IMG/VR virus record: IMGVR_UViG_3300032167_000055 | Length of the DNA: 64,000 bases | Origin: an uncultured virus (IMG/VR IMGVR_UViG_3300032167_000055) | Lineage: Duplodnaviria > Heunggongvirae > Uroviricota > Caudoviricetes | Direction: 5' to 3' (one strand) | Shown here: one piece after another, positions 10,107-58,079 of the stretch | Layout: the number at the start of each line of letters is the position of its first letter | Position numbering within the stretch: the first letter of the stretch is position 1 | Translations under genes and position numbers: made by a program | The notes under the pieces: generated by a model | Database searches by the model: none | What the model saw: the letters and a program-made list of their open reading frames with translations, nothing else | Told to the model about the DNA's origin: nothing

Positions 10107-10694
10107 TTAAGCCGTATTTGTTAAAACAACTGATTGAACACCTATACCACCATTTACAAAATAATATTGATTTGAAGATCTATTATATAAATTTACTCTG
10201 GCTTTAATAGATGATAAATTTGACGTTGCCAATGTTAATTCTGGTTGGTAAATAGTACCGGCTTTAGAAGCATATGTGAATGTTACCAATGTTGTCCACG
10301 TCGATCCACCATTAGTACTATATTCAAGTGTTGCATCTCCATAGTTTGAATAAATACAAGCCCATAATTTAACTTTAGCATATGTGAAATTTTTAATATT
10401 ACTTGTAAAAGTCATAATGTCTTTTGTTGCTGAATATGATCCTCCAGAATTACGTGCTGTTTCACCGTTATTTGTATCATTTGATGCAATATAAGTTGTA
10501 TTATTTATAGAAACGGCAGTTCTACTAAAATAACAATTGTATGTTTGTTCAAATGACGCAGTAAATGCTGTTAAAGTTTGTGGTACCTCCCATATAGTAG
10601 TACCATTACATACAACTTTAGTTATATTAGTACCATTTACTTTAATACTACCTTCTGTAGTAGGTATAGTAGTTCCATTCATAACTATAGACAT
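10107..10694 (-). CDS. Putative tail-fibre tip adhesin (second gene of cassette 1)
   Basis: N-terminus MSIVMNGTTIPTTEGSIKVNGTNITKV shared with 55925, 57178 and 62625 ORFs; divergent beta-rich C-terminus; GGAGGT RBS. Confidence 0.75.
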   Translation of the reverse strand: MSIVMNGTTIPTTEGSIKVNGTNITKVVCNGTTIWEVPQTLTAFTASFEQTYNCYFSRTAVSINNTTYIASNDTNNGETARNSGGSYSATKDIMTFTSNIKNFTYAKVKLWACIYSNYGDATLEYSTNGGSTWTTLVTFTYASKAGTIYQPELTLATSNLSSIKARVNLYNRSSNQYYFVNGGIGVQSVVLTNTA

Positions 10695-10707: not shown

Positions 10708-11175
10708 CTAAGTGGTAATAGTTAATACTGTACCAGATAAAGATACTGTGGGAATAGTACCAGTTTTACTAGGAAGGGTTAGAGTAATATTAGACGTTGT
10801 ATTATTACCAGTTTGAATTTGTGTATATCCGGAAGATGTACCATACATACGAATTAAACCACGTCCATTACCAGCTGTACCCGATGCAGTTCCATTACCT
10901 AAATCTAAACGCCCGGTACCAACTCTACTAGTCGTTCCTGTCTCATAAGATGTTAAAAAAGCATAAGTATGTGTGTCTGAATTAATAGCTGAAAATGTTC
11001 TTGATATTACTCCAGACCAATATGAACCCGTACCACCCAAAATATATTCATCAGATATCGAAGGATATATGTCACCGGAAATAGTACCACCACTTAATGG
11101 TAAATAACTATGTGTATGACTACTATTAGCTTTACCGTTTACAGTAGTAGTTAGAGTTGTAATATTACTATTTAG
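10708..11175 (-). other. Silent tail-fibre C-terminal cassette 1 (no start codon)
   Basis: Frame opens at CTA AAT AGT AAT right after an in-frame TAG: LNSNITTLTT...SYLPLSGG...GNGTASGTAGN...SLSGTVLTITT; resembles the C-terminal part of 44937-46817. Confidence 0.85.
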
Positions 11176-11244
11176 CTAAATAAAGAATCTGTAAGTCCCT
11201 AGAAATATCGAGACTTACAGAAATTTTACTTAACTAAATTCCGT
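11165..11244 (-). repeat. 80-bp hairpin element, copy 1
   Basis: ACGGAATTTAGTTAAGTA-AAATTTCTGTAAGTCTCGATATTTCTAGGGACTTACAGATTCTTTATTTAG-CTAAATAGTAA; eight near-identical copies in the window. Confidence 0.95.
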
Positions 11245-11397: not shown

Positions 11398-14300
11398 TTA
11401 CCATGGAAATGATCCTCCAGAATCACTGGAACCACCAAGACCATTCATATCATCGAAAAATCCCATATCATATCCACCATCATCTTCTTCAAACGTAGTG
11501 TATTTATTATCAGAATCAAGACCTTCTGGTATATAGTTAAGTGAACTATTAACCAATCTTGATGTTTCTGCTTGAGATCTTTCTATAGCGTTTCGTAATA
11601 TAGCCTCATAATCTAATGCTTTCATGGCTTCTCTTTCTTCCATGATTGCTTGAGCAACATCTGTAGGTAAAACTTTATTAAGCTCGGATTCGGTTTTCTC
11701 ATAGATGCCTTGATTACGAGGTTTTTCTTCTCTTTCACCAGGATAATAACCAAATATCTGTAAGTTATTACCATGATATAAAACATACATTGCGATTAAG
11801 TAAGACATTACAGAGTCATCGTGAACATATTTTTCGTTAATCTATACATCTCTGTATAGGTCAGACTATATCTTCATCTTATATTCTGTTACCAAATATA
11901 AGATGCCTCCAATTTCGGATTTCTCCTACTCTACTCGCTTCTTCACTATAGTATTTCTCTATAGTTATGCTTTCGATAGTCGTTGAACCTTACTTATTAT
12001 TTATAATAATAAGTCTTGGCTGCTGATTGTCTCTATTCATCAGATTGTCACACTTTACTGTACTGATGACCTAACGAGAGTTCCCAGCAATTAAAGAGGT
12101 TTAACCAGACCTCCACTATTCTATTCAAATTCTACAAATTTTTTGCCTTTTTCAAACTTTGATTTTAAATGTTTGACATTACTACGAATTTTTTCGTCAT
12201 ATTCCCATCCCATTTCATTTATAACCTCTCGTACTGAAAATCCTTGTTTAAAAAGATTTTCTATTTTAACGAGTTCATTATATGAAAAAATTGCAGAAGC
12301 TTTTTTAGTCTTTTTAAATTTATAGTTTTTACTAAGTTCTTTCCAAGTTTCTCTTTTACGAATACGTAATACAAAATCATACCCTAAATTATAATCATTA
12401 GATATTTTTTTAGGTGATATCCCTTTTGATAATAATTCACAAACCAATGTAGCCTCTTCTATTGTATGAGTTGTTAAATTACATTTTTCAGATGAAACAC
12501 TTGTTGGTTTCTTTAAACCAGTTCTAAAAGCATGGTAATTATTATACGAATATGTACACCAAACAAGATTAGAAATGTCATTATTTAATTTATCACCATC
12601 TTCATGATTTATAACTGGAAGATTTTCTGGATTAGGAATAAATCCTTTTCCAACTAATCTATGAATTAATTGTGTTTTGTATTCACCTGCTTTACCTAAC
12701 TGAAGATTTACGACTTTATATCCTGTATCTTTTGATATATATCCTTTAAGTTCTTTTTCTGTAAATATATTAAATATTCGACTATCCTCAGTTATTAAAT
12801 ATTTAGTTTGAATTTTATATATTTCATCATTATATTTAATATCAATAGTGATATTTTTCCCAATTATTCCATTTGATAAAGTTATAAGTTTTTTAAATTC
12901 AATTCCTTCTCTATTATCTTCTATTTCTTTTATTATTGGCAAAATAAATGCACCTCAATTCATTAATAATTAATGATATGTTGATGCATTATAAATGTAG
13001 AATTCATAGCGATTTTCGAGCCTGGACCAGCTGCAATCTTTCCTGATGATGTACGTACTAATCGAGATATATCTGTAATAACGTTCTCTGCAATAAAATC
13101 ATCTTTATTTTCAGAAATACGTCTAGCCAGAATAGCAAACATTGCTTCTCTAGAATGACCTTCTGTGTATACACCATAGAAAGATTTTTGTGCTGCTTGT
13201 TTTTTAAGCATTGACTCTATTGTCTCATATTCTTTTTTGTTTTCTTCAGTAAGATCTTTTGCTCTATCATAATATAATCTAGATGCAATTCTTGACTGAA
13301 GTAAATGGTCGATAATACCATCACCTACACTATTTCGTTCTACACAAACGATAGCTTTAGGTACATGGCGTGTTACTAATTCAATAATAATCTGTTCATA
13401 CAACGTTTCACCAACATAAGAACAAGCAAATTCAAATGCAGGTCTAGTTGTATATGGATTAATACCAGTAATAGCATTATTATCCTTATTTGTACCTGTT
13501 GAACAGTCAACACCGACAATGTAAGGAATAGAAGGATCTAATTCTTCATAAATCATAAACTGGTAGTAATCTTTTACAAATAAAACATCGATTGGTTTAT
13601 GCATATTCTCGACGATATACTCAATATCTTCCTGAGGATAAGGAGAAAGTGATGAACCATGTAATCTCTGAAGTAGGATTTCTCGACGAACAACAAGTGC
13701 ATCACCGATCATATTACTCATCTTAGATAACCATTCTTCATCCAAACCAATCTGATAATACTGGAACTCAATATAAATAATGCGGTTAGATTCACCAGCT
13801 TTAGCAAATTCTTTCATTTCATCTTTAGTCATATCGTATAAACGCTCTGACCACTTAACGGTCTTATCAAGAATTATTTGAGCTGAAATACCAGCATTAC
13901 TATCAAGATCTCCTGGGGTACCATATTTTGTTAAAAATATTAGACTATATCTTCAATATTAATTCTGTTACCAAATTAATATTGCCTCCTATTTCGGATT
14001 TCTCCTACTCTACTCGCTTCTTCACTATAGTATTTCTCTATAGTTATGCTTTCGATAGTCGTTGAACGTTATATAATCGTAAAGTTAAAATTTTCAAACA
14101 TATAATATTTTAGTGTAAATAATAAAAACAGTCCGGTTCATAAGGAGTTATTATTTACCCTAATCTTGTATAGTGTAATATAAAAGGGATTACACACTGT
14201 ATCAACACGAACCGGTATACAAGAATCGCAGGCCTAGGGGCGTAACGTCTAGGCTAACCACCATACGGCAGTATTGGTTGGGACGTGGTGATTATGAGGC

Positions 14301-15425
14301 TGCTCCAAACAAAACCTATGTAGAATCAAAAGCCAAGTGGAACTAGCCACTCCACAGCACTTAAACAGACGGGTGACAGTGCAAGCCCGAGCAGCCCTTG
14401 CATAGGAAAAAATAAGAGCAATCTTATTTTTTTATTTTTACGATTATATCTTCGCTGCGGATTGATTCTATTCTTTACCTTTTTACTATACCTTTGGAGT
14501 TACCCATTGCCACTAAGTATATTACTATCTTAGTTTAGTAGTAAAGACATAACGAATTCGTTCCCGCAATTAAAGAGGTTTTACTTACGCGTAAAATCCA
14601 CGTAAAGATTCTTCCGTATAATGATCCATTCATTTCTGCAGCACGTGCAGCTGTTTCATAAGTTGATACAGAGTTTTCCACAATTTCTTTTATAAAGTCA
14701 GTAAACTCTGGCTCATCATAATGAATAATAGCAGCAGATAAACCTCGAGCAAGTGAAATAGCTTTCGCTTTAGAAGCAGCACCTGCACGAACAGAAATTC
14801 TGTTCTTAGTTACAGGATGCCTCATTTCTGTAGCGTTTTTAATAGCTTTCACAGTTTTACCATTTTCATCATCAAAGAATGATTCAAATCGCAAATACTC
14901 AGGTAATAAATCTATCTGTGTCTTAATACGTGCTAAGTTTTCCTTTGCGTCGGGTTGTTGTTTATTAACAAAAATAAATGATGTATTTGTAGTACCAAAT
15001 GAATACCCCCAAGCCTGAATAGCAAGTGCAGATTGCGTTTTACCTTGCTGACGAGGTAAACAAAGCCATGAATCTATTCCGTGTAAGAATAAAAATGCTT
15101 GTGCTATATTTCCTCGATTTGCTTTATAAGGAATTCCCTTAGGATTACCAGGATCAGGTATTCTACATACTTCTCTTAGATAATACCATGGATTTCTTCT
15201 ACATTCAGTAACTACTCGTACAATCTCATCTTTTGTTAATGTACAAACACCATTTTCATCGCATTTATAAGGATCTATAGTTAAAACTACAGGATCATAT
15301 ACTTCAAGCATGAAATAGTAGTTCTTAACACCTAATTGCTTTAAGTCAGTAGCTAACTGAAGAAAAGACACATTAGATGTTCCTATATCATAAAGGCGTC
15401 CATTATATTTTTTCAATCGTCCCAT
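11398..15425 (-). CDS. terL: Terminase large subunit, three exons (15425-14600, 13921-13019, 11825-11398; 718 aa spliced)
   Basis: Walker A 'LPRQQGKT', Walker B 'IIHYDEPEF', spliced 'IFTCTPGD', nuclease 'IVGVDCSTG', 'VERNSVG' and spliced 'GPGFHDDSVMS'; exon lengths 826+903+428 keep the frame. Confidence 0.88.
11826..13018 (-). mobile_element. Group I intron 2 in terL, carrying an HNH ORF
   Basis: Core motifs AATTGCTGGGAAC, AATCAGCAGCCAAG, GTTCAACGACTATCG and GAAGATATAGTCT; 5' exon ends in U, intron ends in G; splicing restores GPGFHDD. Confidence 0.88.
12121..12942 (-). CDS. Intron-encoded HNH homing endonuclease
   Basis: 'IHRLVGKGFIPNPENLPVINHEDGDKLNNDISNLVWCTYSYNNYH' HNH motif. Confidence 0.9.
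   Translation of the reverse strand: MPIIKEIEDNREGIEFKKLITLSNGIIGKNITIDIKYNDEIYKIQTKYLITEDSRIFNIFTEKELKGYISKDTGYKVVNLQLGKAGEYKTQLIHRLVGKGFIPNPENLPVINHEDGDKLNNDISNLVWCTYSYNNYHAFRTGLKKPTSVSSEKCNLTTHTIEEATLVCELLSKGISPKKISNDYNLGYDFVLRIRKRETWKELSKNYKFKKTKKASAIFSYNELVKIENLFKQGFSVREVINEMGWEYDEKIRSNVKHLKSKFEKGKKFVEFE
13922..14599 (-). mobile_element. Group I intron 1 in terL (no endonuclease ORF)
   Basis: Core motifs AATTGCGGGAAC, AATCCGCAGCGAAG, GTTCAACGACTATCG and GAAGATATAGTCT; ACGT| and G|GTACC junctions give T-C-T-P-G; 3' half nearly identical to intron 2. Confidence 0.88.
14130..14436 (+). ncRNA. Candidate structured RNA antisense within terL intron 1
   Basis: Upstream promoter-like motif (about 14078-14116) also seen at about 15875 and 29266; GC-rich stems, two crossing-helix pseudoknot patterns, terminal hairpin plus U-run. 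Confidence 0.55.
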
Positions 15426-21348: not shown

Positions 21349-21428
21349 ACGGAATTTAGTTAAGTAAAATTTCTGTAAGTCTCGATATTTCTCGAGACTT
21401 ACAGATTTCTTATTTAGCTAAATAGTAA
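21349..21428 (+). repeat. 80-bp hairpin element, copy 2 (opposite orientation)
   Basis: ACGGAATTTAGTTAAGTAAAATTTCTGTAAGTCTCGATATTTCTCGAGACTTACAGATTTCTTATTTAGCTAAATAGTAA. Confidence 0.95.
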
Positions 21429-21702
21429 CGCAGAAATAAATTATATTCAAACAGGTAGAATAATAAATAGTGTTGTTGCATCAAAAACTCGTACAACTTT
21501 TGATATAGAATTTGATACAGAATATAGAGTTGTACCTAAAGTATTTGCAACATTTATGTCAAATTCAGAAGATTATAATTATGGAAATCTTAATATTTGT
21601 ATAGGAAATATTTATAAAACTGGATTTGAACTTCATGTACACAATACAAATGATGGTGATTTAGAACCAGGTGTATTATGGATTGCAGTAGGTAAGATGT
21701 AA
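21418..21702 (+). other. Silent tail-fibre cassette 2 (H-type lectin/gp53-like domain)
   Basis: LNSNAEINYIQTG...FDTEYRVVPKVF...KTGF...VLWIAVGKM*; no start codon at its 5' end; not in the ORF track. Confidence 0.8.
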
Positions 21703-24949: not shown

Positions 24950-27900
24950 ATGGCTAAAGAAAAATATAACTTACGAGAAGCTTTACTTAAAAGCGATGAA
25001 TTATTTAGAGGTGATCGATCTATCGAAGGTAAGGGTATGCTTACGATGCCTCAGTACAACAACAGTATGCGAAGTGTTATGTTCGCATCTCATTTAAACC
25101 AATATAAAAATCAGTTATACCCTGATTTCCCACAGTTCTTTACAGGTGGCGAAAATGTTGTAGGAAAGTATTCTGATGGTTATAAGAAATTAAATGAGTC
25201 CGTTGTTTATCGTAAAATTGTAAAATTTGAAGGACTTGTTGAACACCCTACAGTGTTTAAGATCTTTTTATATAATAAAACTAAAAAGATGTTTGAAGTA
25301 ATTGAACGTAAACCAGATGAAGATTTGGTAGAAGTATTTGGTTACAGATACAACACTGATGTTATTGACTCTTTTGAAGAGGGTCAAGAAATTGATGAAG
25401 GTACTATTGCATACAGATCTACTTCATATGATGAACACATGAATTATTCATATGGAAAAGACGTTCTTACTATGTATTCTTTAGAACCTTTCACATCTGA
25501 AGATGCAGCAATTGTTTCTGATGAACTTGCTAAGAAAATGGTAGCACCTGAAACAGAATATAATATTGCTACACTCAATGAAAACGATTATCCACTTAAC
25601 CTTTATGGGGATGAAACGGAATATAAAGTATTCCCTAATATTGGAGAGTTTTCTTCTGGTATTTTAATGGCAACCAGAAGAAAATTTAATAATCAGGTTT
25701 TGTTTGATTTCAAAGCAGATATGCTTGATCATGCTACTGATACCGATACTAAGTATTATTTGAACGGTAAAGTTGTTGATATTGATATTTATTGTAACAA
25801 CGAAGAATTACCTGACAATTCATTCTATCATCAGATATATACATATTGGTGTTATCAGAATGCATATTACAGACAAATCAAACAGACATGTGAAGAGATA
25901 TTCGCAACAGGTGAAAAATATTCTAATGATGTGGATTATGCGTATAAAAGAGCATGTGAAATGCTTGACTTAGAGAAGAAGTGGAAAGAAAAAGATTCTG
26001 CTTTCTCTAATGTACAGATTCATATTTTGGTTGAAAGAGAAGTAGGATTAACTGTCGGACAAAAAGTTTCAGGTCGTTATGGAAACAAATCTGTTATAGC
26101 TTCTATTAGACCAAAAGAAGAAATGCCGTATTACTATGACGCTGATGGAAATAAAGTATATGTTGAAATGATCTTTAATATGCTTGCGATTATTAACAGA
26201 ACAACAGCCGGACCAATCATGGAACTGGCAACTAACTTTATTGGTAAGAGGGTTAGTGAGACAATGCGTCATATGAAAACGATGAAGGAAAAAGATAAGT
26301 TACTTTTCGATGTTATTAATATATTTAACCCGGATGAGTATATTTATCTTAAGAATATTTACAAAGGACTTGATACTGAAGGTAAGAAAACATTCCTTAA
26401 GTATTGTGAGGAAAAGAAGATTCACTTTAATCAACCTTCAATGTCAGAAAGTAGTCCAATATTCTATCGTATTATGGAACTTAAGAATAAATATGAGAAT
26501 ATCTTAAAACCGGATAAGATGTATATTCAGAAATTCGGAAGAGAAATTCCTTGTATTCAGGATTCTTATATTGCGAATATGTACACAATTATGCTTAAAC
26601 AAACAGCAAAGAAAGGTTTCTCCGTACGAGGAATTGGTGCTGTTAGTAGTAAGGGTGTACCTGAAAGAAGCTATAAATCCAAATCTCATAAAGATTTATA
26701 CTCTTCAACTGCAATTCGTTTTGGTGAATTTGAGACGCTTAAAATTAGGCGCAGTGCGTAGTAATATGTACTGAAAACCTCTTTAATTGCTGGGAACTCT
26801 CGTGAGAGACAATCAGCAGCGAAACTTATGATGATATATTATTCTCTTGATATATAAATAAAGGAGATTGATATATGTATAACGATATTGATGAAATATG
26901 GAAACCTATTATAATTAATGACGAAGAAACAAAATACCTAGTGTCTAATCTAGGACGAATTTATAGTACTAAAAATAATATGATTTTAAAACCACTTCCA
27001 ACAAACAACGGATACCTTCGAGTATGTATTTACTTGAAAAATGGAAAATCTGTATATAAATCTATTCATAGGTTGGTTGCAATTGCGTTTATTCCAAATG
27101 ATGATCAATTGCCAGTTGTTAATCATAAAGACGGAGATAAACATAATAACTATGTCGATAACTTAGAATGGCTTACATATTCAGAAAATAATATTCATGC
27201 ATTCGAAACAGGATTGAACACATATAGATATGGCGATAATTCACACTTCGCTAAATATTCTAAAGATCAAGTGATTGAATCGTGTGAACTTATGGAAAGT
27301 GGTATGTTTACAATAAAAGAAATTGAATTGATGACTGGTATAGATGGTGCTATGTTATATATGATTAAAAATCGATTATCATGGATTAATATATCAATAT
27401 TTTATGATGTTGAAAATTGTAAACAAACGAAATCAGAATATTCTGAAGAACAAATAGAAAATGTCTTTAAACTACTATCAGAAAACAAATTATCTGTATA
27501 TGAAATCATGGATATTACTAATGTGAAGACGTCTACTATCTATAATATTCTCATTCATAGATACGATAAATTTAAATATCTATATGAGTTTTATGATGTT
27601 GATAAATACACATCGAGTGATAAGAAATTACCAGATATTGATATTGATGTACAGAATGAAGTATTTGGTTATATTAGAAATAATAAATCTACGAAAGATA
27701 TTATCAATATAATTCATTCTAAATACAATATAAATTCTGATCGAATTCGTCATTTTATTAATCGTTATAAACATAAGAACGTTCAACGACTATCGAAAGG
27801 GTAACTTAAGAGAAAGACTTAAGTGAGTAACTGAGTAGAGTAGGAAGTAATTCCGAAATGGGAGGCAACCAATAATTGGTAATAGATTATTGGTTGAAGA

Positions 27901-28494
27901 TATAGTCTGATCTTTATAGTGATATAAAGTTAACACACATGTAATTTCACCGTTGCGATGATGCCGGAAGAAGTAGCACTTATTCATGCTTTATATAGAA
28001 CTTCTGTTAAAGCAAGAAGAGATTTAGGTAAAGCTTTACTTGATAATGAACCTGTAATTACAGTAAGTAAATCATATGATTCACGTGTTGCAGAGTTCTT
28101 TGAAATTATCCTAAAATCATTAGGATTTTCAATTGAGTTCTTAGATGGTGATGATGATCTTAAAGAACTTAATACTACAGATATGGAGTGGTTCGAACTT
28201 ACTAATGGAAAGAGTTTATTCTGTAGTGAATATGATAAATTCATTATTGACAGACGTCAGGAAATTGCAGATGAACTTCTTGAAGAATTTGGTGCTTTAA
28301 ACATTGACGAACTTAATGAAATGATCGATGAAGAAATTGAAGCACGTCAATATTTCATTGGTAGTTATGATGGAACCAAAGATTTCTATTTGAACTGTGT
28401 AGAGGGAACTAATATTAGAAGAGAAGTAAAATCTAACGAAGAGATTACTGCTAATATTGGTGAACTTATGGATGTAGAAGTTCCGTTAGAATAA
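24950..28494 (+). CDS. Phage RNA polymerase beta-like subunit (probably non-virion), two exons (24950-26739, 27942-28494; 780 aa)
   Basis: 'SEDAAIVS', 'GQKVSGRYGNKSVI', 'IINRT', 'MLKQ', spliced 'IRFGEFETLNF'. Confidence 0.85.
26740..27941 (+). mobile_element. Group I intron in the RNAP beta gene, carrying an HNH ORF
   Basis: P1 CGCU-U/AGGCG with U-G at the splice site; core AATTGCTGGGAAC, AATCAGCAGCG, GTTCAACGACTATCG, GAAGATATAGTCT; terminal G at 27941. Confidence 0.88.
26875..27804 (+). CDS. Intron-encoded NUMOD4/HNH homing endonuclease
   Basis: 'EIWKPI...YLVSNLGRI' (NUMOD4), 'IHRLVAIAFIPN...VNHKDGDKHNNYVDNLEW'. Confidence 0.9.
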   Translation: MYNDIDEIWKPIIINDEETKYLVSNLGRIYSTKNNMILKPLPTNNGYLRVCIYLKNGKSVYKSIHRLVAIAFIPNDDQLPVVNHKDGDKHNNYVDNLEWLTYSENNIHAFETGLNTYRYGDNSHFAKYSKDQVIESCELMESGMFTIKEIELMTGIDGAMLYMIKNRLSWINISIFYDVENCKQTKSEYSEEQIENVFKLLSENKLSVYEIMDITNVKTSTIYNILIHRYDKFKYLYEFYDVDKYTSSDKKLPDIDIDVQNEVFGYIRNNKSTKDIINIIHSKYNINSDRIRHFINRYKHKNVQRLSKG

Positions 28495-28566: not shown

Positions 28567-29166
28567 TTAAATGAAAAACTCATTTACATATAATGGGATA
28601 CTGACTGAAATTGTTTGACGAGGATATAGATATACTGCTCCGCCAGTTGTAATGGTTAAATTAGCTGTATATATTTTTCCGTCAGATGTAGTTGAAATAC
28701 ATATTTCTTTTTTAAATTCACGTGAAGGTAAATAATTACTATTAGTAATGGTTGTAAGATGATAGGATGTTTTTGCTATTAAATCAGCACTTGGGGTAGA
28801 ATTAAAAAATATATTTTTTATTTTACCGCTTTTTGATACAGTAACTTGAATATATGACGATGTAAAACTATCTACAACAGGATCAAATGATTCTTGAAAT
28901 GCTAGTGTTTTTAGTATATATCCATTTTCATGAATAGTCGATCTATTCCATAAATATACTTTTCCGGTATTTGCTATATCTGCAAATAAAATAGATCCTA
29001 CATCACCTGATGTTCGAGAAATACCGACATACATAGAATTACTATCACCTAAATAACAAAATCCTGATTTCACTGAACTAAATTGTGTATGCATTGTATA
29101 TGCTAAATCATTAACATTTCCATTAGATCCAAACGTCCATGTAGGAGGGTAATTCTTACTATTTAG
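28567..29166 (-). other. Silent tail-fibre cassette 3
   Basis: Frame opens LNSKNYPPTWTFG... directly at the element core and continues into track ORF 28567-29094. Confidence 0.8.
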
Positions 29167-29235
29167 CTAAATAAAGAATCTGTAAGTCCCGAGAAATATC
29201 GAGACTTACAGAAATTTTACTTAACTAAATTCCGT
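29156..29235 (-). repeat. 80-bp hairpin element, copy 3
   Basis: Near-identical to the other copies. Confidence 0.95.
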
Positions 29236-39613: not shown

Positions 39614-39982
39614 TTATTTTATACGTACTAATGTAACGCGCCAATTAAATGCACGTGCCTCACTTACAGAATCATTATGAAATAAATAAATTGTAAATAT
39701 GCCGTTAGTTATATTTACTATAGATACATGCTGAATTGTATTTCTTCCTGTCTGATATGCATACATAAATGTATTATTGGTATTGATGCCATTAGAATTT
39801 ATTTGTACGTTTGTATTTTGTCCAACCCATGCTTCAACTGTGATAATTGCGCAGTAAATACCATTAGGTATGTCATTTACATTTGTACTTGTACTTCCAG
39901 TTCCACCACCTTCACTTCCAACACATGTCATTTGTCCATATGATGTAAATATATCTCCAATAACAGATGCGTTACTATTTAG
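39614..39982 (-). other. Silent tail-fibre cassette 4
   Basis: LNSNASVIGDIFTSYGQMTCVG...IPNGIY...VTLVRIK*; frame opens at the element core. Confidence 0.8.
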
Positions 39983-40051
39983 CTAAATAAAGAATCTGTA
40001 AGTCCCGAGAAATATCGAGACTTACAGAAATTTTACTTAACTAAATTCCGT
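39972..40051 (-). repeat. 80-bp hairpin element, copy 4
   Basis: Near-identical to the other copies. Confidence 0.95.
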
Positions 40052-40098
40052 CCAACCCCCTACCTAATATCTTCAACTACAGTAGCGCATCAAATCCT

Positions 40099-43581: not shown

Positions 43582-44169
43582 TTATTTTACAGTACCTCCA
43601 AATAAATGTATGAACATTGCTAATTGATCAGCATGAATATTTTGCATATTAGCAACTGGTCTTATTGTGTCTCCAGCAATAGCGTCTTTAAAGAACACAC
43701 CAGTATATTCAGACCCTTCTAATGGATTATATATGTACATATTATTGTACAAATATTGATATATCGTAAAGAATCCAAATTTATACAATATACCTTTTAT
43801 ATCCATATTTAACATAGATGGATCAAACATCTGTTTTTCAAATAATCTAAAGACACTATCTTCACTTTCAAGTATAACAGCCTTTTCTTCATCCCATGTA
43901 CACACAATACTTACATTCATTTTCTTAGTTGGAAATTCTGGATCTTTTGTAACAAATTCTGTTTCTGTTAGTTGTTGTGATGGATGCGTTCTAGTTACGT
44001 CTTTGAACTGATCTTTCGTAAGTTCTCTTTCATAACATATAAATTTATCCATATTACGGTATTCTTTAAATCTTTCAGCAAATTCTTTACTATTCGTATA
44101 TGCATAAAGAACTGGTTCTAATCGTCTATTAACATCTTTATCTCTAAAATAAAACATGTATATTTTCAT
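43582..44169 (-). CDS. Hypothetical protein
   Basis: 195-aa ORF with GAGG RBS and upstream TATATTAT. Confidence 0.7.
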   Translation of the reverse strand: MKIYMFYFRDKDVNRRLEPVLYAYTNSKEFAERFKEYRNMDKFICYERELTKDQFKDVTRTHPSQQLTETEFVTKDPEFPTKKMNVSIVCTWDEEKAVILESEDSVFRLFEKQMFDPSMLNMDIKGILYKFGFFTIYQYLYNNMYIYNPLEGSEYTGVFFKDAIAGDTIRPVANMQNIHADQLAMFIHLFGGTVK

Positions 44170-44810: not shown

Positions 44811-44936
44811 TTCCTTTCTTTCAACATTAATATTTTGTTTTCTCGATATTTTCGGAGTAAAAATATGGTATACTATATAGTATACCATATTTTTTATTCT
44901 GTAATTAACTTTTCAGTCATGGATCATCTAGATAGA

Positions 44937-46817
44937 TTATGAGACAATGTCAATATAAGTATATTCAATCCACCATTTTGTTGTAGTTGAATACTCAGTA
45001 CCATTCAAATAGGCATATGCTAAAGATATATTAAAACTTTGATCTATATCCCAATATACAGCTCCACCATTAGAATCAGAAACCCCCATATTTTGAAAAT
45101 ATCCTGCTCTTATTCTTGAAACGTCAGATTTCCTTGGTATTTCCGTTGATACTACAATAGTAGTACTTCCATTTATCTGGGCAAATACTTGCATAGAAAG
45201 TATAACTCCACCAACACCAATCAACCCAGCTATTTCATTTGTACTAACTTTTCCAGTCTTAGTACTACCAACAACATGTTTTATCGTGTTGTCACTCACT
45301 AATACTCCAGCTTCTCCAGGTAATTTTAAAGTATAATTATCTCTTCTATTAACTGTTGGTATAATATCAGCATAACCGCCCCACTTATTATAAAGACGCA
45401 ATCTACCAGTAGAATTTCCAGCTGTTCCTGACGAAGTAGCATTACCAACCATTAGATATGCTATTCCTTCTGCAGATGTTGTACCTACATTAGAAACTGC
45501 AAAACTTCCGCAATTAGATGATGTATTTGTACCATCATATATATACATGGTTTTAACAAATGAATTTGTCCATACTCTTGTTGTCGAACCTAATGAATAT
45601 GATACATTAGCACTAGGTGTTACATTTCTACTTGTTAATGTACCAGTTAATGTTCCACCTGATAAAGGTAAATAACTACTCATATTACTATTTAGTGTAT
45701 CAATCTGATTTTGCAACAAATAGCCCTGGTTTGCTGTAAGCGCCTTATTGGTTACTCCGTTAGCACTTGCAGAAGCACAACTATCTATCAACCAACCAGA
45801 AAGTGTACCAACTTTTGCAGCAGTTCCGGTATAGTTTGTACCGTTAATGTAGTTAGAAGTTGAACTTCCTAAATAACATGTACCGGTAAGTAAAGAGCTG
45901 GAAGTAAGTCTTCCTGCAGTTGTATCAAGGTAAACACCAGTATCAAATACCTGAGTACCAGTATTTGTTGTTGCAGAAGTAGTACCTGTAATATAAGCTT
46001 TAGCTGTAGTATTCAAGGTATTTGTAACTTTTGTATCAGAGTTAGCATCACTTGTCAATGTAAGAGTAACGTTTTTAATTGCTGTTACACGACCATATGC
46101 ATCTACTGTTACATAAGGCACAGTGAATGATCCTGAATCTGCTACAGTTGCATCTGCAGAAGATCCATATGAACCTGCTGTTGCGCCAGATGTAGCAAGT
46201 CTTTCAGCTGCTAATGTACCACTTTTAACATTACTTGCATTTAAGTTTGTTAATGCAGAACCATTACCAGAGAATGATGTTGCAACTAACTGACCTGATG
46301 TTGTACTTACATAAACACCAGTATCAAAATATTCAGCAGAAGGCATTCCTGCTGCATTATTAGGAGTACCAAGTAAGTAGAACTTAGTGGTATTCTTATT
46401 TTCAACATATGCAGGATTTACACCTGCAACTACGAGGTAATTAGTACCATCGTAAACGAACTCAACAGAAGCGCCAGCACGAATAACGTTAGCCTTTAAA
46501 GCTGCACCTTCGTAATGAATTGCCTTTGCACCTGTACTATTTACGTTCAATGTAGCACTTGCTACAGTAATAGCATTTGTAAATTTAACGGTAACATGAG
46601 CACCTGCCTTAAGAACAAAACCTGTTGCAGAAGCTACTTTTGCAGCTGTTGCAGCGGCTGTAGAACAAGTACCGTAGAACATTACCTTTCCTTCAATTGT
46701 AACGCCGGATGTCGAACTTGTGTGGACATCGGCGAGTGTATTCTTTGGATATAATATATCCTGATTACCGCTTGAATCAATGCGGGTCATCTCAATATGT
46801 TTTCTTGTAGTCGCCAT
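44937..46817 (-). CDS. Complete tail fibre / receptor-binding protein (putative expression locus)
   Basis: 626 aa, Thr/Ser/Gly-rich; 'ILYPKNT', 'YGTCSTAAATAAKV', 'ALTANQGYLLQNQIDTLNSN'; AGGAGG RBS and late promoter motif. Confidence 0.88.
   Translation of the reverse strand: MATTRKHIEMTRIDSSGNQDILYPKNTLADVHTSSTSGVTIEGKVMFYGTCSTAAATAAKVASATGFVLKAGAHVTVKFTNAITVASATLNVNSTGAKAIHYEGAALKANVIRAGASVEFVYDGTNYLVVAGVNPAYVENKNTTKFYLLGTPNNAAGMPSAEYFDTGVYVSTTSGQLVATSFSGNGSALTNLNASNVKSGTLAAERLATSGATAGSYGSSADATVADSGSFTVPYVTVDAYGRVTAIKNVTLTLTSDANSDTKVTNTLNTTAKAYITGTTSATTNTGTQVFDTGVYLDTTAGRLTSSSLLTGTCYLGSSTSNYINGTNYTGTAAKVGTLSGWLIDSCASASANGVTNKALTANQGYLLQNQIDTLNSNMSSYLPLSGGTLTGTLTSRNVTPSANVSYSLGSTTRVWTNSFVKTMYIYDGTNTSSNCGSFAVSNVGTTSAEGIAYLMVGNATSSGTAGNSTGRLRLYNKWGGYADIIPTVNRRDNYTLKLPGEAGVLVSDNTIKHVVGSTKTGKVSTNEIAGLIGVGGVILSMQVFAQINGSTTIVVSTEIPRKSDVSRIRAGYFQNMGVSDSNGGAVYWDIDQSFNISLAYAYLNGTEYSTTTKWWIEYTYIDIVS
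45685..45695 (-). repeat. 11-bp core CTAAATAGTAA inside the complete fibre gene
   Basis: Identical to the last 11 bp of the 80-bp element, same reading frame (L375-N-S-N). Confidence 0.85.
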
Positions 46818-46894
46818 ATCTCGAGCGCCTCCTTTTCTATTATTCTTTCATGAAAAAATAATTGAGACCCATAGATTTCTCTATGGTAATTACT

Positions 46895-46906
46895 TAGTAG
46901 AATGTT
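46895..46906 (-). promoter_or_regulatory. Late promoter-like motif AACA-N6-TA
   Basis: AACA-TTCTAC-TA; the same spacing occurs upstream of many structural genes (starts at 3072, 9976, 18424, 20668, 34683, 48197, 51304, 58181, 60895); matches the AR9 late consensus. Confidence 0.7.
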
Positions 46907-47009
46907 TTTATATTAGAAAGCTGTGTAGATGTGTAAAAAAATCTCTGAAATCCTTATATTTTCGATGATATATTATTATCATGAATATTCTAAGGAAGGA
47001 GGTTTTAAC

Positions 47010-47180
47010 ATGAGTTATATTGATAACTTGAGAAAGTTATACAACGAAATGAAACTAGCAAACGGTTTTGATACCGATGCTAGTTTCATGACAGCTTGGC
47101 AGTCTGATCCAAACAGATATGCCAACATTTTCTCAGTTAGAATGGCTTTGATTCAGGCATTGTCTGATCAGTTGTTCTAA
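47010..47180 (+). CDS. 56-aa hypothetical protein divergent from the fibre gene
   Basis: ATG after AGGAGG; upstream TATATTAT; downstream terminator hairpin. Confidence 0.65.
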   Translation: MSYIDNLRKLYNEMKLANGFDTDASFMTAWQSDPNRYANIFSVRMALIQALSDQLF

Positions 47181-47328
47181 CTAGAAAACAAGAGGTCAAA
47201 ATGCTCATACAAGCCAATCTTGGAATATTCAAGTAAGGGTAGCTGTAACTACCCTTACTTTTTTTGTTATTTTATCGATTAAATATAATTTTTTTTAAGT
47301 TACTTAACTTTTTGGGTTTTGTTTAGAA

Positions 47329-47346
47329 TACTTAACTAAATTCCGT
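47329..47346 (-). repeat. Isolated 18-bp left arm of the 80-bp element
   Basis: ACGGAATTTAGTTAAGTA exact match, same orientation as the fibre gene, separated from the 11-bp core by 1633 bp. Confidence 0.85.
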
Positions 47347-51399: not shown

Positions 51400-51687
51400 T
51401 TATACTGAATTTAACTCAAATAAATATATTACACAACTGCACTGTTGAGATGATCCGTATAAATTATATAATGTAACTGTTACTGAAGTTGCCGATGTAT
51501 TAGATATAGTAACTGAACATAAAAAAGTTGAAGAAATAAATGCATGTGGACTTTTTGTATAATTATATGAAGACAAATCTAGGGTGATTATTTCATAAGC
51601 GTTTACCGCAATAGGATTTGTACTTTTAACTGAAAATGATCTAAAATTTCTAAAAACAATTCCCGATTTATCCACCTTACTATTTAG
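51400..51687 (-). other. Silent tail-fibre cassette 5
   Basis: LNSKVDKSGIVF...YTKSPHAFIS...SVTVTLYN...; frame opens at the element core. Confidence 0.8.
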
Positions 51688-51756
51688 CTAAATAAAGAAT
51701 CTGTAAGTCCCGAGAAATATCGAGACTTACAGAAATTTTACTTAACTAAATTCCGT
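51677..51756 (-). repeat. 80-bp hairpin element, copy 5
   Basis: Near-identical to the other copies. Confidence 0.95.
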
Positions 51757-51779
51757 CCCCACACTCCAAAAAATCATAC

Positions 51780-55153: not shown

Positions 55154-55756
55154 TTATTTATACATAATGAAATATGATCTCATATTTGTATTTGTTAATC
55201 CTAACCAATAAGGAGATTTTATGATTACTGATGTTGAAGTTTTTTCATATACATCTGAAGCACTAACAAATTTTCTATTAGTACCATTACTTGTATGCCA
55301 GTTTGACACTGAATAAGTTCCATCTGACATTAAGAAACAAGCTGTTCCTACGGCACCACTCTTAGCTTCAACAATATATCCTAGTAATTGATTAAAATCA
55401 GATGGTGAAATATATGATGTTACATCAGTAGTCCAAGGTTTATATATAACAAACTTAGCTTCAATTTCCGCTTGTATCCATTTACCATCATGTAAACTTT
55501 TAAAAGGGGTTACTGTATCAGCACCGCTTGGTATGTATCCCCAATTTCCTTCCGGATCTTGTCCAAATGAAATATTAGTTAAACTATTATGAGTATGACT
55601 CTCAAATGAGAACCCACCTAAGTCATACCATCCATCTATTGTACATTTTAACTTTGAACCAGTCCAACCAATATTAACCGTATTAGAGCTTTGATCTACA
55701 CCGCCTCCTTGTCTAACAGGAACAAATCCTAGTGAATTTTGCTTGTTACTATTTAG
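55154..55756 (-). other. Silent tail-fibre cassette 6
   Basis: 200 sense codons with no start at the 5' end: LNSNKQNSLGFVPVRQGGG...VNIGWTGSKL...GYIPSGADTVTPFK...; phage fibre-type motifs; not in the ORF track. Confidence 0.85.
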
Positions 55757-55825
55757 CTAAATAAAGAATCTGTAAGTCTCGAGAAATATCGAGACTTACA
55801 GAAAACTTACTTAACTAAATTCCGT
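55746..55825 (-). repeat. 80-bp hairpin element, copy 6
   Basis: Near-identical; GTAAGTTTTC variant. Confidence 0.95.
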
Positions 55826-55924
55826 CCCCCCTGTCACCACTCTTCACAAAGTCAATATATCATATCTATAAATCAATCGCAAGAGATATGATTTTACTAT
55901 ATAACTAACCTATACATTCATATG

Positions 55925-56539
55925 TTAAGGTTTTATAACAACACTCGTTAATGTTAATTTACCATAACCAGTACCATCAAAATATCCTTCAGTGTCATAT
56001 CGGATTCTCAGTTTATATGTGCCTGATAATGATGGTAATGTAAATGTTTTATTAACAGCTGTAGATTGAAGTACTCCTCTACCATCAGCACTGCCACTTA
56101 TACTTGCAAGACTCATAACAGTAGTTGTTGCTCCTGTTGATGTATTGTATAATTCTACTGCCATCTTATTAACACCATAATGGTTACCATTCCAATATAC
56201 AGTACCAGTTATAGTTAATCTTTGTCCTGATGGAGTAAAGGTATTTGTTGAAAGTAAGTACGCATATCCATAACCATTATATCCACCACCAGCATCAATT
56301 TGAATAGTGATACTATTACCAGATAAAACTATAGGATTAGAAGGACGGTCATAATCAATCCAACCATCAGTATAACCACTTGATTGAAGAGTGTATGACG
56401 TAATATTAATGTCAGTAATCTTTTCCCATACTGTAGTAGTTGTAGAACCTTTTACAACATTTACTTTTGTTACATTAGTATTACCAACTTTAATCGTTCC
56501 TGATGAAGGTATAGTGGTTCCATTTACAATAATAGACAT
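55925..56539 (-). CDS. Putative tail-fibre tip adhesin (second gene of cassette 7)
   Basis: MSIIVNGTTIP... shared N-terminus; GGAGGT RBS. Confidence 0.75.
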   Translation of the reverse strand: MSIIVNGTTIPSSGTIKVGNTNVTKVNVVKGSTTTTVWEKITDINITSYTLQSSGYTDGWIDYDRPSNPIVLSGNSITIQIDAGGGYNGYGYAYLLSTNTFTPSGQRLTITGTVYWNGNHYGVNKMAVELYNTSTGATTTVMSLASISGSADGRGVLQSTAVNKTFTLPSLSGTYKLRIRYDTEGYFDGTGYGKLTLTSVVIKP

Positions 56540-56550
56540 ATTATACCTCC

Positions 56551-57072
56551 CTAAATTGTAATAGTAAGTGTTGTACCGGATAATGACGCTCTACAAAGTG
56601 TAAAATCTGTAGTATCTACTCTACATACAATACTGGATCCATTCCATCCTAAATACATTATATTTGAATAAGATGGATGCCTTCTGACCAAGTTTCCATT
56701 AGATTCTACTCCAGTCATTGTTGCATAATTTAGAGATGACAGATATGTTATATCTACAAGTTGTCTCCATGTAAATATTTCATGACCAGCTGAAATAACT
56801 CTATAATGAATACCATTATCATTAACCATTGGAAATGCTACTTCAGTATAGTATCCATCTCCATTTGCATGATTCATTCGTATTTTATGAAACCATGTAT
56901 TTGCAACAGGTGTTGAATTCTTCTTTGGACCTGACGTTGTTCCATCTCCGGTCGTATTCATATATTCTAATCCAGATTTACCATATACTGGAGCATTAGA
57001 ACCTGAATGTAATAGATATGCTAATCCTACAGCAGTTTCTCCAGAAATAACTTTATTTACGTTACTATTTAG
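56551..57072 (-). other. Silent tail-fibre cassette 7
   Basis: LNSNVNKVISG...SLSGTTLTITI*; frame opens at the element core. Confidence 0.85.
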
Positions 57073-57141
57073 CTAAATAAAGAATCTGTAAGTCTCGAGA
57101 AATATCGAGACTTACAGAAAACTTACTTAACTAAATTCCGT
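57062..57141 (-). repeat. 80-bp hairpin element, copy 7
   Basis: Near-identical; abuts the AGGTTAGTTATA end motif of cassette 8. Confidence 0.95.
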
Positions 57142-57177: not shown

Positions 57178-57663
57178 TTATGTGAAAGTACATGTCAAAG
57201 ATGTCGTTATAGTATGCGTAGATCCTATATCTCCACCAGATACTCCTATAGTAACGGAAGATTTTCCAGAAATATTTATTTCTAAAGTTTTTGTATATGT
57301 AGAACCTTGAGATGTTCCATCCCATTGTGTTCGTTTGTATAAAGAATAAACAGTTCCATCAACAACAACATTAGCATCTACTCCGTTACCATCCCAGCTA
57401 TTCCATGAAGCAGTTTTTACAGAAGCACTTATAGTTAATTTAGTATGACCACTAAGTGATACTGTATCTAACGTAGAACTATAAGTTCTGTATTCTTGAT
57501 CATCACTTGAATTATCCGTATATGAATATGTTTTAGTTATTGGTGTTGCTGATGATTTCCATACACTAGTTCCATTACATTTAACTTCTGTTATTTGCAC
57601 ACCATTAACTACAATTTTACCCTTTGATGTAGGTATAGTGGTTCCATTTACAATAATAGACAT
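57178..57663 (-). CDS. Putative tail-fibre tip adhesin (second gene of cassette 8)
   Basis: MSIIVNGTTIP... shared N-terminus; GGAGGT RBS. Confidence 0.75.
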   Translation of the reverse strand: MSIIVNGTTIPTSKGKIVVNGVQITEVKCNGTSVWKSSATPITKTYSYTDNSSDDQEYRTYSSTLDTVSLSGHTKLTISASVKTASWNSWDGNGVDANVVVDGTVYSLYKRTQWDGTSQGSTYTKTLEINISGKSSVTIGVSGGDIGSTHTITTSLTCTFT

Positions 57664-57674
57664 ATTATACCTCC

Positions 57675-58010
57675 CTAAATTGTAATAGTAAGAGTAGTTC
57701 CAGATAATGTCATATGACCTATATTCCTCATGTTTTTATATCCAAAATTACCATCACTTTTCTTATATCTGAATAGTAAATCATAACCATTATTTGCATC
57801 AGTATAAATATATGGTCCTAAACCACTAGCTGAGCCTAAATGGATACTTGCAAAAAATGGAGAAGAACCTGTGGCAGGGCGTGATTGTGAATCCCATATA
57901 GCGTTATTGGATGAATTATATAATACAAGATTTCCATCACTTTGTAATATAAATGTATATCCGTTTTGTGCAGATTTAAAACAAGCACCACTAGGTCCAT
58001 TACTATTTAG
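57675..58010 (-). other. Silent tail-fibre cassette 8 with a bulb-type lectin motif
   Basis: LNSNGPSG...YTFILQSDGNLVLYNSSNNAIWDS...TLSGTTLTITI*; QxDxNxVxY motif; not in the ORF track. Confidence 0.85.
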
Positions 58011-58079
58011 CTAAATAAAGAATCTGTAAGTCCCGAGAAATATCGAGACTTACAGAAAACTTACTTAACTAAATTCCGT
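58000..58079 (-). repeat. 80-bp hairpin element, copy 8
   Basis: Near-identical to the other copies. Confidence 0.95.

Follow-up and report, generated by a model that had tools for sequence, protein, structure and literature searches.

Why should two short sequences that lie 51 bp apart at eight places along a phage genome lie 1633 bp apart at a ninth, with the beginning of a fibre gene between them? The question arises in a stretch of 64,000 nucleotides (the window) of the uncultured virus IMGVR_UViG_3300032167_000055, whose genome record, rated complete, has 278,849 bp; the window corresponds to positions 119027-183026 of that record on the reverse strand, and coordinates are given in window numbering unless marked as genome. 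At the eight silent sites an 18-bp arm, a 51-bp hairpin and an 11-bp core precede a start-less C-terminal cassette, and at the ninth, the expression locus, a 1633-bp module stands where the hairpin would be. The answer that we consider moderately probable is that this is one site of a genome-wide fibre switch, in which module and hairpin spacer may be exchanged between inverted site halves by crossovers of arm with arm and core with core. The fuller proposition, that a mobile module trades places with the hairpins at any of 16-35 docking sites, catalysed by an Xer-type enzyme and with essential genes undisturbed, and that the same sites make the genome a set of shufflable blocks, is more tentative, and we regard it as possible rather than probable.

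The arm (ACGGAATTTAGTTAAGTA, 18 bp) occurs nine times in the window, with none expected from 100 shuffles, and 19 times in the genome, and the copy at the expression locus is the sole one of the 19 without a hairpin after it. An earlier note on this DNA had placed this lone arm at 47329-47346 and the core at 45685-45695 of the same strand, and had described the 1633 bp between them as holding a small divergent gene and fibre codons 1-374; every coordinate proves right to the base, and the content is borne out by the list of open reading frames (ORFs) and the translation (Table 1). The module is unique in the genome, sharing no 20-mers with any other part of it. Its leader contains two blocks, AAAAACATTCT and TTTTCATGAAA, that flank a stem-loop, and the small divergent gene has a terminator at 47231-47260 by terminator scan and no Pfam, PHROG or NCBIfam family. 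The constant part of the fibre has no Pfam, PHROG or PDB match, and its single GenBank match, a weak one, is annotated 'tail protein'. That the product is a tail fibre is likely mainly from the cassettes, among which Pfam finds a Peptidase_S74 chaperone domain in three of 17 and an H-type lectin in one of 17, and which contain motifs such as HTHSYLPLSGGT that we take to be fibre-like. Peptidase_S74 chaperone domains are typical of fibre and spike ends.

All eight of the other arm copies in the window begin an 80-bp element of arm, hairpin and core, with the composition that the earlier note gave for silent sites. Each of the eight cores leads in frame into an open, start-less cassette of 94-200 aa and is itself immediately preceded by a TAG stop. 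The genome as a whole has 16 intact silent sites, whose cassettes measure 94-457 aa, and two decayed ones, spread over genome 19-172 kb; 14 of 19 arms and 13 of 17 core-bearing sites share one orientation, the opposite one being found at 5 of 19 sites. Of the two decayed elements (genome 41501, minus strand, and genome 96095, plus strand), both kept in related contigs, one has arm and hairpin and no core, and in the other a single base inserted into the core (CTAAATTAGTA) closes the frame after two codons. A core-like 11-mer at genome 102735 (minus strand) has no arm and looks like a chance match.

Two further regularities adjoin the silent elements. The 12 nt directly 5' of every arm (for example 40052-40063, 55826-55837 and 51757-51768) are variable, G-rich and almost free of C, both here (G 46%, against 16% in the genome) and in the related phage G012 introduced below (G 50%, against 14%), with C at 6% and 1% respectively, so that composition is conserved and sequence is not. 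Downstream of several cassettes, on the same strand, lie ORFs of 160-200 aa that match no known family (10110-10694, 55928-56539, 57181-57663 and 43585-44169, minus strand), which could encode cassette-specific assembly factors, co-expressed only once the module docks.

The architecture of the element suggests how a silent site might be kept silent. Folding of the complete element gives a single long, imperfect hairpin (-39.1 kcal/mol, z = -8.5) in which the 3' part of the arm pairs with a stretch running into the core; its inner 14-bp stem and T-rich tail score as an intrinsic terminator facing the cassette, the role that the hairpin would probably play, and the arm, as read from the sequence, holds a stop codon in all three frames. 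Covariation cannot be scored, as the paired columns are invariant in 35 copies, and Rfam has no match at the element. Conservation is concentrated at the ends, with the arm kept in 19 of 19 copies and the core in 17 copies around a variable centre. These centres are mosaic, 4 of 15 informative column pairs showing all four combinations and so failing the four-gamete test, a sign of gene conversion or of recombination within elements. When the arm is reverse-complemented, it agrees with the right end of a silent element at 11 of 18 bases, a score reached by 110 of 20,000 shuffles, and at 14 of 18 bases in G012, reached by 0 of 20,000. Because of this resemblance the element is read as two inverted, related site halves around a terminator, of which the half with core and cassette is live and the half with the arm is blind, no cassette-length frame running outward from the arm.

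Does the module in fact change places with a hairpin? Eight IMG/VR contigs carry the arm, at 34 loci in total (a lone arm match in an unrelated contig, locus L011, is taken as chance); with the exception of two sites, flanks and hairpins in the eight related contigs match the reference exactly, and order is collinear outside this pair. The first of the two is the expression locus. In the 86.6-kb contig IMGVR_UViG_3300018878_000137 (locus L034) it reads as a full 80-bp element before MSSYLPLSGG, precisely the arrangement that the earlier note had proposed to look for in related genomes or reads. The flanks are 100% identical over 2518 bp upstream and 2449 bp from the core side, the 1633-bp module is replaced to the base by a 51-bp hairpin, and no module is present anywhere in the 86.6 kb, which reaches the next site at the spacing expected for 1582 bp removed and is otherwise collinear with the reference. 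The incoming hairpin carries a distinctive C. The genome record has 18 elements with a hairpin, and of these only the silent element 29156..29235 (minus strand; site 29218) shows that base, which recurs at the same site in two further contigs (L013 and L029). The window itself has the common hairpin at site 29218, against the one-off variant in the genome record; window and record differ by only four bases in 64 kb (29189, 29195, 29215 and 29216), all inside this hairpin. A 'peel-and-paste' excision of the module was considered and dropped, given that the emptied site has a full hairpin and not a bare arm-core joint.

Site 29218 is also the second of the two. In contig 3300018494_000288 codon 374 is joined through the core to the cassette of this site (LNSKNYPPTWTF...), with collinearity to the reference thereafter; upstream lie the expression locus's own flank, arm and module, and 16,529 bp are missing, exactly from core to core. 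Those 16.5 kb hold a 1612-aa phage RNA polymerase subunit (phrog_14872, E = 2e-165), and because the deletion removes it, the contig more likely represents a path through a mixed population, or a dead-end by-product, than a viable genome. Both halves of a reciprocal exchange, the hairpin acting as 'barcode' and the module end, are therefore seen for the same pair of sites, one of 16 possible partners.

Independent support was sought in Logan contigs of four public runs (X1-X4), assembled at k = 31, from which rare variants are dropped; the runs holding the phage are animal gut or faeces metagenomes by their records, their label 'DNA' is a guess ('DNA?'), and the joints and contig ends reported are those among the matches listed, further pieces and loose ends existing. 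The fusion joint 29155->45685, where 11 letters fit both sides, is present in contigs of three of the four runs (X1, X3 and X4, not X2). These contigs end 30 letters (k-1) past the joint, from which we infer that both fusions are present in one sample. A 107.7-kb contig (G007) starts at the first base of the expression-locus core, and of two X4 contigs one stops at the last base of that core and the second 12 nt beyond the arm (arm + 12 = k-1); if module and hairpin alternate, these are the points at which the assembly graph would have to branch. At site 29218 contigs of X2 and X3 run one base beyond the arm and stop, which fits both hairpin variants of that site coexisting in one sample. Elsewhere in the locus, contigs of all four runs break at 46249, inside the constant N-terminus, in a module that has no repeat in the genome, and one X3 contig ends at 47327. 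Neither the 3' junction of the module nor a 37-mer from its interior had any match (0 each) in scans of metagenome contigs, near-identical records possibly lying outside the set, and a viral scan with a degenerate hairpin pattern found elements only in seven of the eight contigs already known.

Might these junctions be chimeras, made by the assembler at repeated 80-bp elements? The elements do exceed the k-mer, contigs do break there, and 3300018494_000288 could itself be a path through a mixed population. Against this, the fusion junction shares 11 bp, too short for a mis-join at k = 31, and it recurs in one IMG/VR contig and in the Logan contigs of three runs; at the emptied locus a single read is long enough to span the 80-bp element, whose flanks are unique and whose hairpin has the distinctive base; and fusion proteins with other C-termini are known from independent collections. 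We consider an artefact highly improbable. Joining at the level of RNA, by trans-splicing or polymerase jumping, was rejected on two grounds: the joined form is found in assembled contigs and in runs labelled 'DNA?', and an arm upstream of the promoter would have no role.

The same design recurs in a second species. The phage under study is a phiKZ-like jumbo phage, as seen from a tubulin (PF00091, E = 3.9e-12) and split multisubunit RNA polymerases, with beta-type pieces recognised by Pfam and PHROG; it also encodes terminase, virion proteins and a UvsX-type recombinase (phrog_97, E = 1.6e-35), and no close relative was found among GenBank phages. Proteins whose N-terminus is 65-95% identical to the constant fibre part have unrelated C-termini after ...LLQNQIxxLN(S/C)(N/K), and within single lineages near-identical N-termini carry different ends (P0007/P0008/P0009; P0004/P0005; P0002/P0003). 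The C-terminus of P0002 is 67.5% identical to the silent cassette of the window element 11165..11244, and the viral collection does not contain the 74% lineage (P0005). P0008, with an N-terminus 66% identical, is encoded by G012, a complete phage of 275,512 bp. Its 18-bp arm (GAACCAATTTTGTTAAGT) occurs in 36 copies, of which 35 are followed by a variable hairpin of ~56 nt and a 10-bp core (AAACTGCAAC), giving 35 silent elements with open start-less cassettes of 89-275 aa, often in tandem; exactly one copy precedes a module, here a leader of ~160 bp and 374 codons with no small gene. Because the G012 module does without it, the small divergent gene is dispensable for the design. The letters of arm, hairpin and core differ between the two phages and the lengths are kept (18 and 10-11 bp), and the G012 elements again have invariant ends and a mosaic centre, 61 of 136 informative column pairs failing the four-gamete test. 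Conserved between the species are the left end of the module (GTTAAGTA..TAAACAAAA..GTTAAGTAA), the presence of a second copy of the arm's 3' half inside the module, and both leader blocks. The cassette that is silent directly upstream of the G012 module is the C-terminus of the fusion protein P0007 from elsewhere (109 of 110 aa), and because it lies upstream of the module in the same orientation, that fusion needs exchange or duplication and not deletion. More distant fibre relatives (L045-L050) have only generic fibre repeats in common and no element system, with a weak recombinase match in one of their five contigs.

Which enzyme might act at these sites? A Pfam scan of 265 of 268 submitted ORFs (genome ORFs of at least 80 aa and window ORFs of at least 70 aa, three very long ones being left out) found a single recombinase family, represented by a tyrosine recombinase of 341 aa that is encoded beyond the window, at genome 64172-65197 (PF00589, E = 5.5e-37; N-terminal SAM-like PF13495, E = 5.3e-11). 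It passes the XerA-type NCBIfam model NF040815, at 231 bits against a cutoff of 220, and its best NCBIfam model bears the name 'tyrosine recombinase/integron integrase'; alignment to the XerA and XerD structures 4A8E and 1A0P puts the active-site motifs (R-K-H-R-H-Y) in place. Judged by models and alignment, the protein is an Xer-family tyrosine recombinase. It is 73% identical in G012, it has no obvious other use in a jumbo phage of lytic type, and it is most likely the catalyst that would act on arm and core. By eye, no convincing 11-6-11 dif-like site was recognised.

An integron-like scheme would make do with the core alone: the module would be fixed, its core attI-like and the elements attC-like, and DNA between direct cores would be excised as a circle and lost or re-inserted. 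Contig 3300018494_000288, reading flank, arm, module, core and the cassette of 29156 and then collinear, is an exact product of core-to-core deletion; the elements form imperfect hairpins in which the ends are conserved and the centre varies; the cassettes lack promoter and start and often lie in tandem in G012; and the name of the recombinase's best model mentions integron integrases. Yet the integron-integrase models themselves fall far below their cutoffs (TIGR02249, 82.7 against 265 bits; NF011946, 50.6 against 435), and recombination at the core cannot part an arm from what follows it, whereas L034 shows the locus's own flank and arm followed by a hairpin. Nor does deletion explain the P0007 fusion, whose cassette lies upstream of the module, and in the present species the excised 16.5 kb would take the RNA polymerase subunit with it, because of which a simple core-to-core deletion would be harmful. 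On this evidence the core-only scheme is unlikely.

The sites appear to have had a larger effect on the genome. Comparison of gene order between the two phages (160 reciprocal best hits, giving 38 breakpoints and 121 kept adjacencies) places 18 of 19 sites here, and 34 of 36 in G012, in synteny breakpoints. Intervals holding an element make up 15 of 38 breakpoints and 1 of 121 adjacencies (p = 5e-10), or 19 of 38 and 2 of 121 on the G012 side (p = 3e-12), and when only gaps of at least 500 bp are counted the figures are 14 of 23 against 1 of 29 and, for G012, 19 of 25 against 2 of 21 (p ~5e-6). The adjacency of gene to element is often kept on one side only, and many blocks are inverted between the species with elements at their breakpoints; recombination at elements has therefore permuted and inverted the blocks between them. 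The earlier note had supposed that fibres would switch without rearrangement of the genome, which holds for L034 and does not extend to the divergence of the two species, where the elements mark the breakpoints of block shuffling.

Such blocks recall an inversion shufflon, in which large inversions between opposed cores, by an enzyme like Min, Gin or Rci, would select the cassette, directly oriented cassettes becoming reachable after earlier inversions while the module stays with its flank. The opposed sites (5 of 19 here and 22 of 36 in G012) and the inverted synteny blocks would suit it well; the natural variants, by contrast, involve two directly oriented sites with collinear flanks, no strand-changing joint is among the joints listed for the four runs, and none of the eight related contigs departs from collinearity with the reference outside this site pair. 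We regard inversion as the switching step as distinctly unlikely. Alternatively, no dedicated enzyme may be involved at all: dispersed repeats would recombine through the general UvsX-type machinery, the split element and its variants would be rare, selected products of short homology, and block shuffling would be a by-product. The phage does encode a UvsX-like recombinase, the hairpins are mosaic, and elements at breakpoints are what repeats would be expected to produce. Set against this is the choice of partner, as the exchanges use just 18 + 11 bp of identity where silent elements offer one another 80 bp, and module-boundary variants nonetheless recur across samples. The invariance of arm and core around a variable centre, the preservation of their lengths in other letters in a second species, and an Xer-type recombinase conserved at 73% in an otherwise lytic-type jumbo phage likewise make general recombination alone improbable.

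The proposal of module exchange can now be set out in full. Each silent site is an element of ~80 bp with two inverted, related halves around a terminator hairpin, and its core opens, in frame, a fibre C-terminus without its own start codon. At the single expression site the 1633-bp module takes the place of the 51-bp spacer, so that only the adjoining cassette would be made. Exchange of arm with arm and core with core would bring the module before another cassette and leave the other site's hairpin behind; equivalently, the DNA between two sites would be cut out at one boundary pair and re-inserted at the other. The crossovers, both of which would take place in one genome, could come in either order; direct sites would pass through a deletion with a circle, opposed ones through an inversion, and the phage's own Xer-type recombinase is the most likely catalyst.

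Several observations weigh against this proposal. Firstly, the upstream flank of another site followed by arm and module is found at none of the 34 IMG/VR arm loci, and run contigs from the flank of site 29218, among those listed, continue into hairpin and not module; as minor forms can be pruned from such contigs, the lack of this junction is weak evidence. Secondly, the sole long contig with the new fusion keeps the upstream flank of the expression locus and is, literally, a 16,529-bp deletion. Thirdly, the hairpin of site 29218 differs between window and genome record, which strictly reciprocal swaps do not explain, so that strict reciprocity was abandoned; the mosaic hairpins of both species mean that ordinary homologous recombination also acts on the elements. 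Finally, the only link between recombinase and sites is their co-occurrence in two genomes, and a contig (G006) encoding a recombinase 38% identical has no 16-mer occurring at least three times and no repeat system. The suggestion of the earlier note that the module may be exchanged into any site, replacing the hairpin, stands as to the replacement, with one partner site only in this species; the module is found before another cassette, fused at the core to that of site 29218, and never behind another site's upstream flank.

Table 1. Features of the expression locus and of the silent elements in the window (aa, amino acids).
Feature	Position	Strand	Basis or remark
18-bp arm, left boundary of module	47329-47346	-	exact match
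11-bp core CTAAATAGTAA, codons 375-378 (LNSN); right module boundary, joint to cassette	45685-45695	-	sequence
Expression module, 1633 bp: conserved left end, small divergent gene, leader, fibre codons 1-374	45696-47328	-	
Fibre ORF, 626 aa	44937..46817	-	ORF list
Constant fibre N-terminus, codons 1-374	45696..46817	-	translation P0001
Expressed cassette (MSSYLPLSGG...)	44937..45684	-	terminator at 44859-44894 (terminator scan)
Repeat of the arm's 3' half (AGTTAAGTA), 19 nt into the module	47301..47309	-	sequence
Small divergent gene, 56 aa from ATG behind AGGAAGGAGG	47011..47180	+	longest ORF starts at 46929 (46929..47180)
Leader, putative promoter region of fibre gene	46818..46935	-	conserved blocks
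Silent element (site 29218); cassette 28567-29166	29156..29235	-	cassette joined to N-terminus, hairpin variant at emptied locus, in other samples
Silent element; cassette 39614-39982 (122 aa)	39972..40051	-	
Silent element; cassette 51400-51687 (95 aa)	51677..51756	-	
Silent element; cassette 55154-55756 (200 aa)	55746..55825	-	
Silent element; cassette 56551-57072 (173 aa)	57062..57141	-	
Silent element; cassette 57675-58010 (111 aa)	58000..58079	-	
Silent element, opposite orientation; cassette 21418-21702 (94 aa, H-type lectin PF09458, E = 8e-07)	21349..21428	+	
Silent element; cassette 10708-11175 (155 aa)	11165..11244	-	

Other features of the genome lie apart from the switch. A group I intron (RF00028, 82.2 bits) at 11842-12119 (minus strand) adjoins an HNH endonuclease ORF at 12124-12942 and is near two terminase large-subunit ORFs (12966-13832 and 14538-15425), and the terminase gene looks interrupted in this region. 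Similarly, the ORFs 24950-26758 and 27958-28491 (plus strand) both match one single RNA polymerase beta-type gene of G012 and are separated by a NUMOD4/HNH endonuclease ORF at 26875-27801, which looks like the splitting of a polymerase gene by insertion of a homing endonuclease. The window contains no tRNAs. Outside it, at genome 242284-246684 (plus strand), lies a second fibre-like gene of 1467 aa with Phage_fiber_2 repeats, which is not in the cassette system.

Host range is the main limit on phage infection and on the use of phages, and known programmed switches choose between two and a few fibre ends within one compact invertible segment. Here a jumbo phage of lytic type has 16 ready-made ends, and its relative 35, and at least two arrangements occur in natural populations. 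Should the module really dock at any site, no virus would be known to have a larger programmed set of receptor-binding variants, and the system would be a natural counterpart of cassette exchange; it would allow host range to be re-dealt with essential genes undisturbed, and would account for the scrambled gene order of these phages, in which 18 of 19 and 34 of 36 elements lie at breakpoints.

How, then, does the system compare with those already described? Invertible fibre segments and shufflons are familiar from Mu (Gin/G), P1 (Cin/C), p15B (Min) and R64, whose shufflon is served by Rci. A Rin shufflon is also reported from Bifidobacterium prophages (PMC6109161). The likeness lies in a constant N-terminus fused, at a short conserved site, to alternative C-terminal ends, of which one is expressed and the silent ones are start-less. 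The shufflons and the Gin, Cin and Min switches, however, are compact clusters that work by inversion between inverted sites, whereas here 16-35 cassettes are spread over ~150-190 kb among essential genes, mostly in direct orientation, the variants join direct sites with no inversion, a terminator hairpin separates the site halves, and the moving unit would be a module of promoter and N-terminus.

Engineered recombinase-mediated cassette exchange, a laboratory method in which the segment between two sites is swapped and the flanks are unchanged, offers a parallel in that a segment is swapped between the same two sites and the flanks are kept; we know of no natural switch that works by cassette exchange. 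In the Vpma system of Mycoplasma agalactiae (PMC2268961) an Xer-type recombinase, Xer1, likewise links one expression site to one of several silent genes at short 5' sites; it is a clustered bacterial locus that works by inversions, lacks a hairpin spacer and does not fuse a protein N-terminus at a coding core, whereas the present case is a virus. Integrons (PMC2727003, PMC5027507) have attC sites that fold as hairpins, promoterless cassettes and a platform of Pc and attI, and so share imperfect hairpin sites, cassettes expressed only beside one platform and an Xer-related tyrosine recombinase. They differ in that the recombinase here falls short of the IntI models, that L034 calls for exchange on the arm side, which recombination of a folded attC, confined to its R' end, does not give, that the cassettes are protein ends fused in frame, and that the 'cassette' between sites can be 16 kb of essential genes. 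The dif modules of Acinetobacter plasmids (PMC6449649, PMC13141974) are similarly discrete modules bounded by inverted Xer-type sites and shuffled into varied contexts; they depend on the host's XerC/D and on pdif sites of 28 bp, their cargo is accessory genes, and they do not act as an expression switch. Full-text literature searches found no alike system in phages, and in one paper (PMC12386605) the passages that mention 'cassettes' concern retroelements. None of the systems compared has docking sites dispersed among essential genes together with a mobile unit of promoter and N-terminus. The system is a new form of programmed fibre switching, and one that shares its purpose and its logic with the shufflons, with Gin, Cin and Min, and with the Xer1 switch of Vpma.

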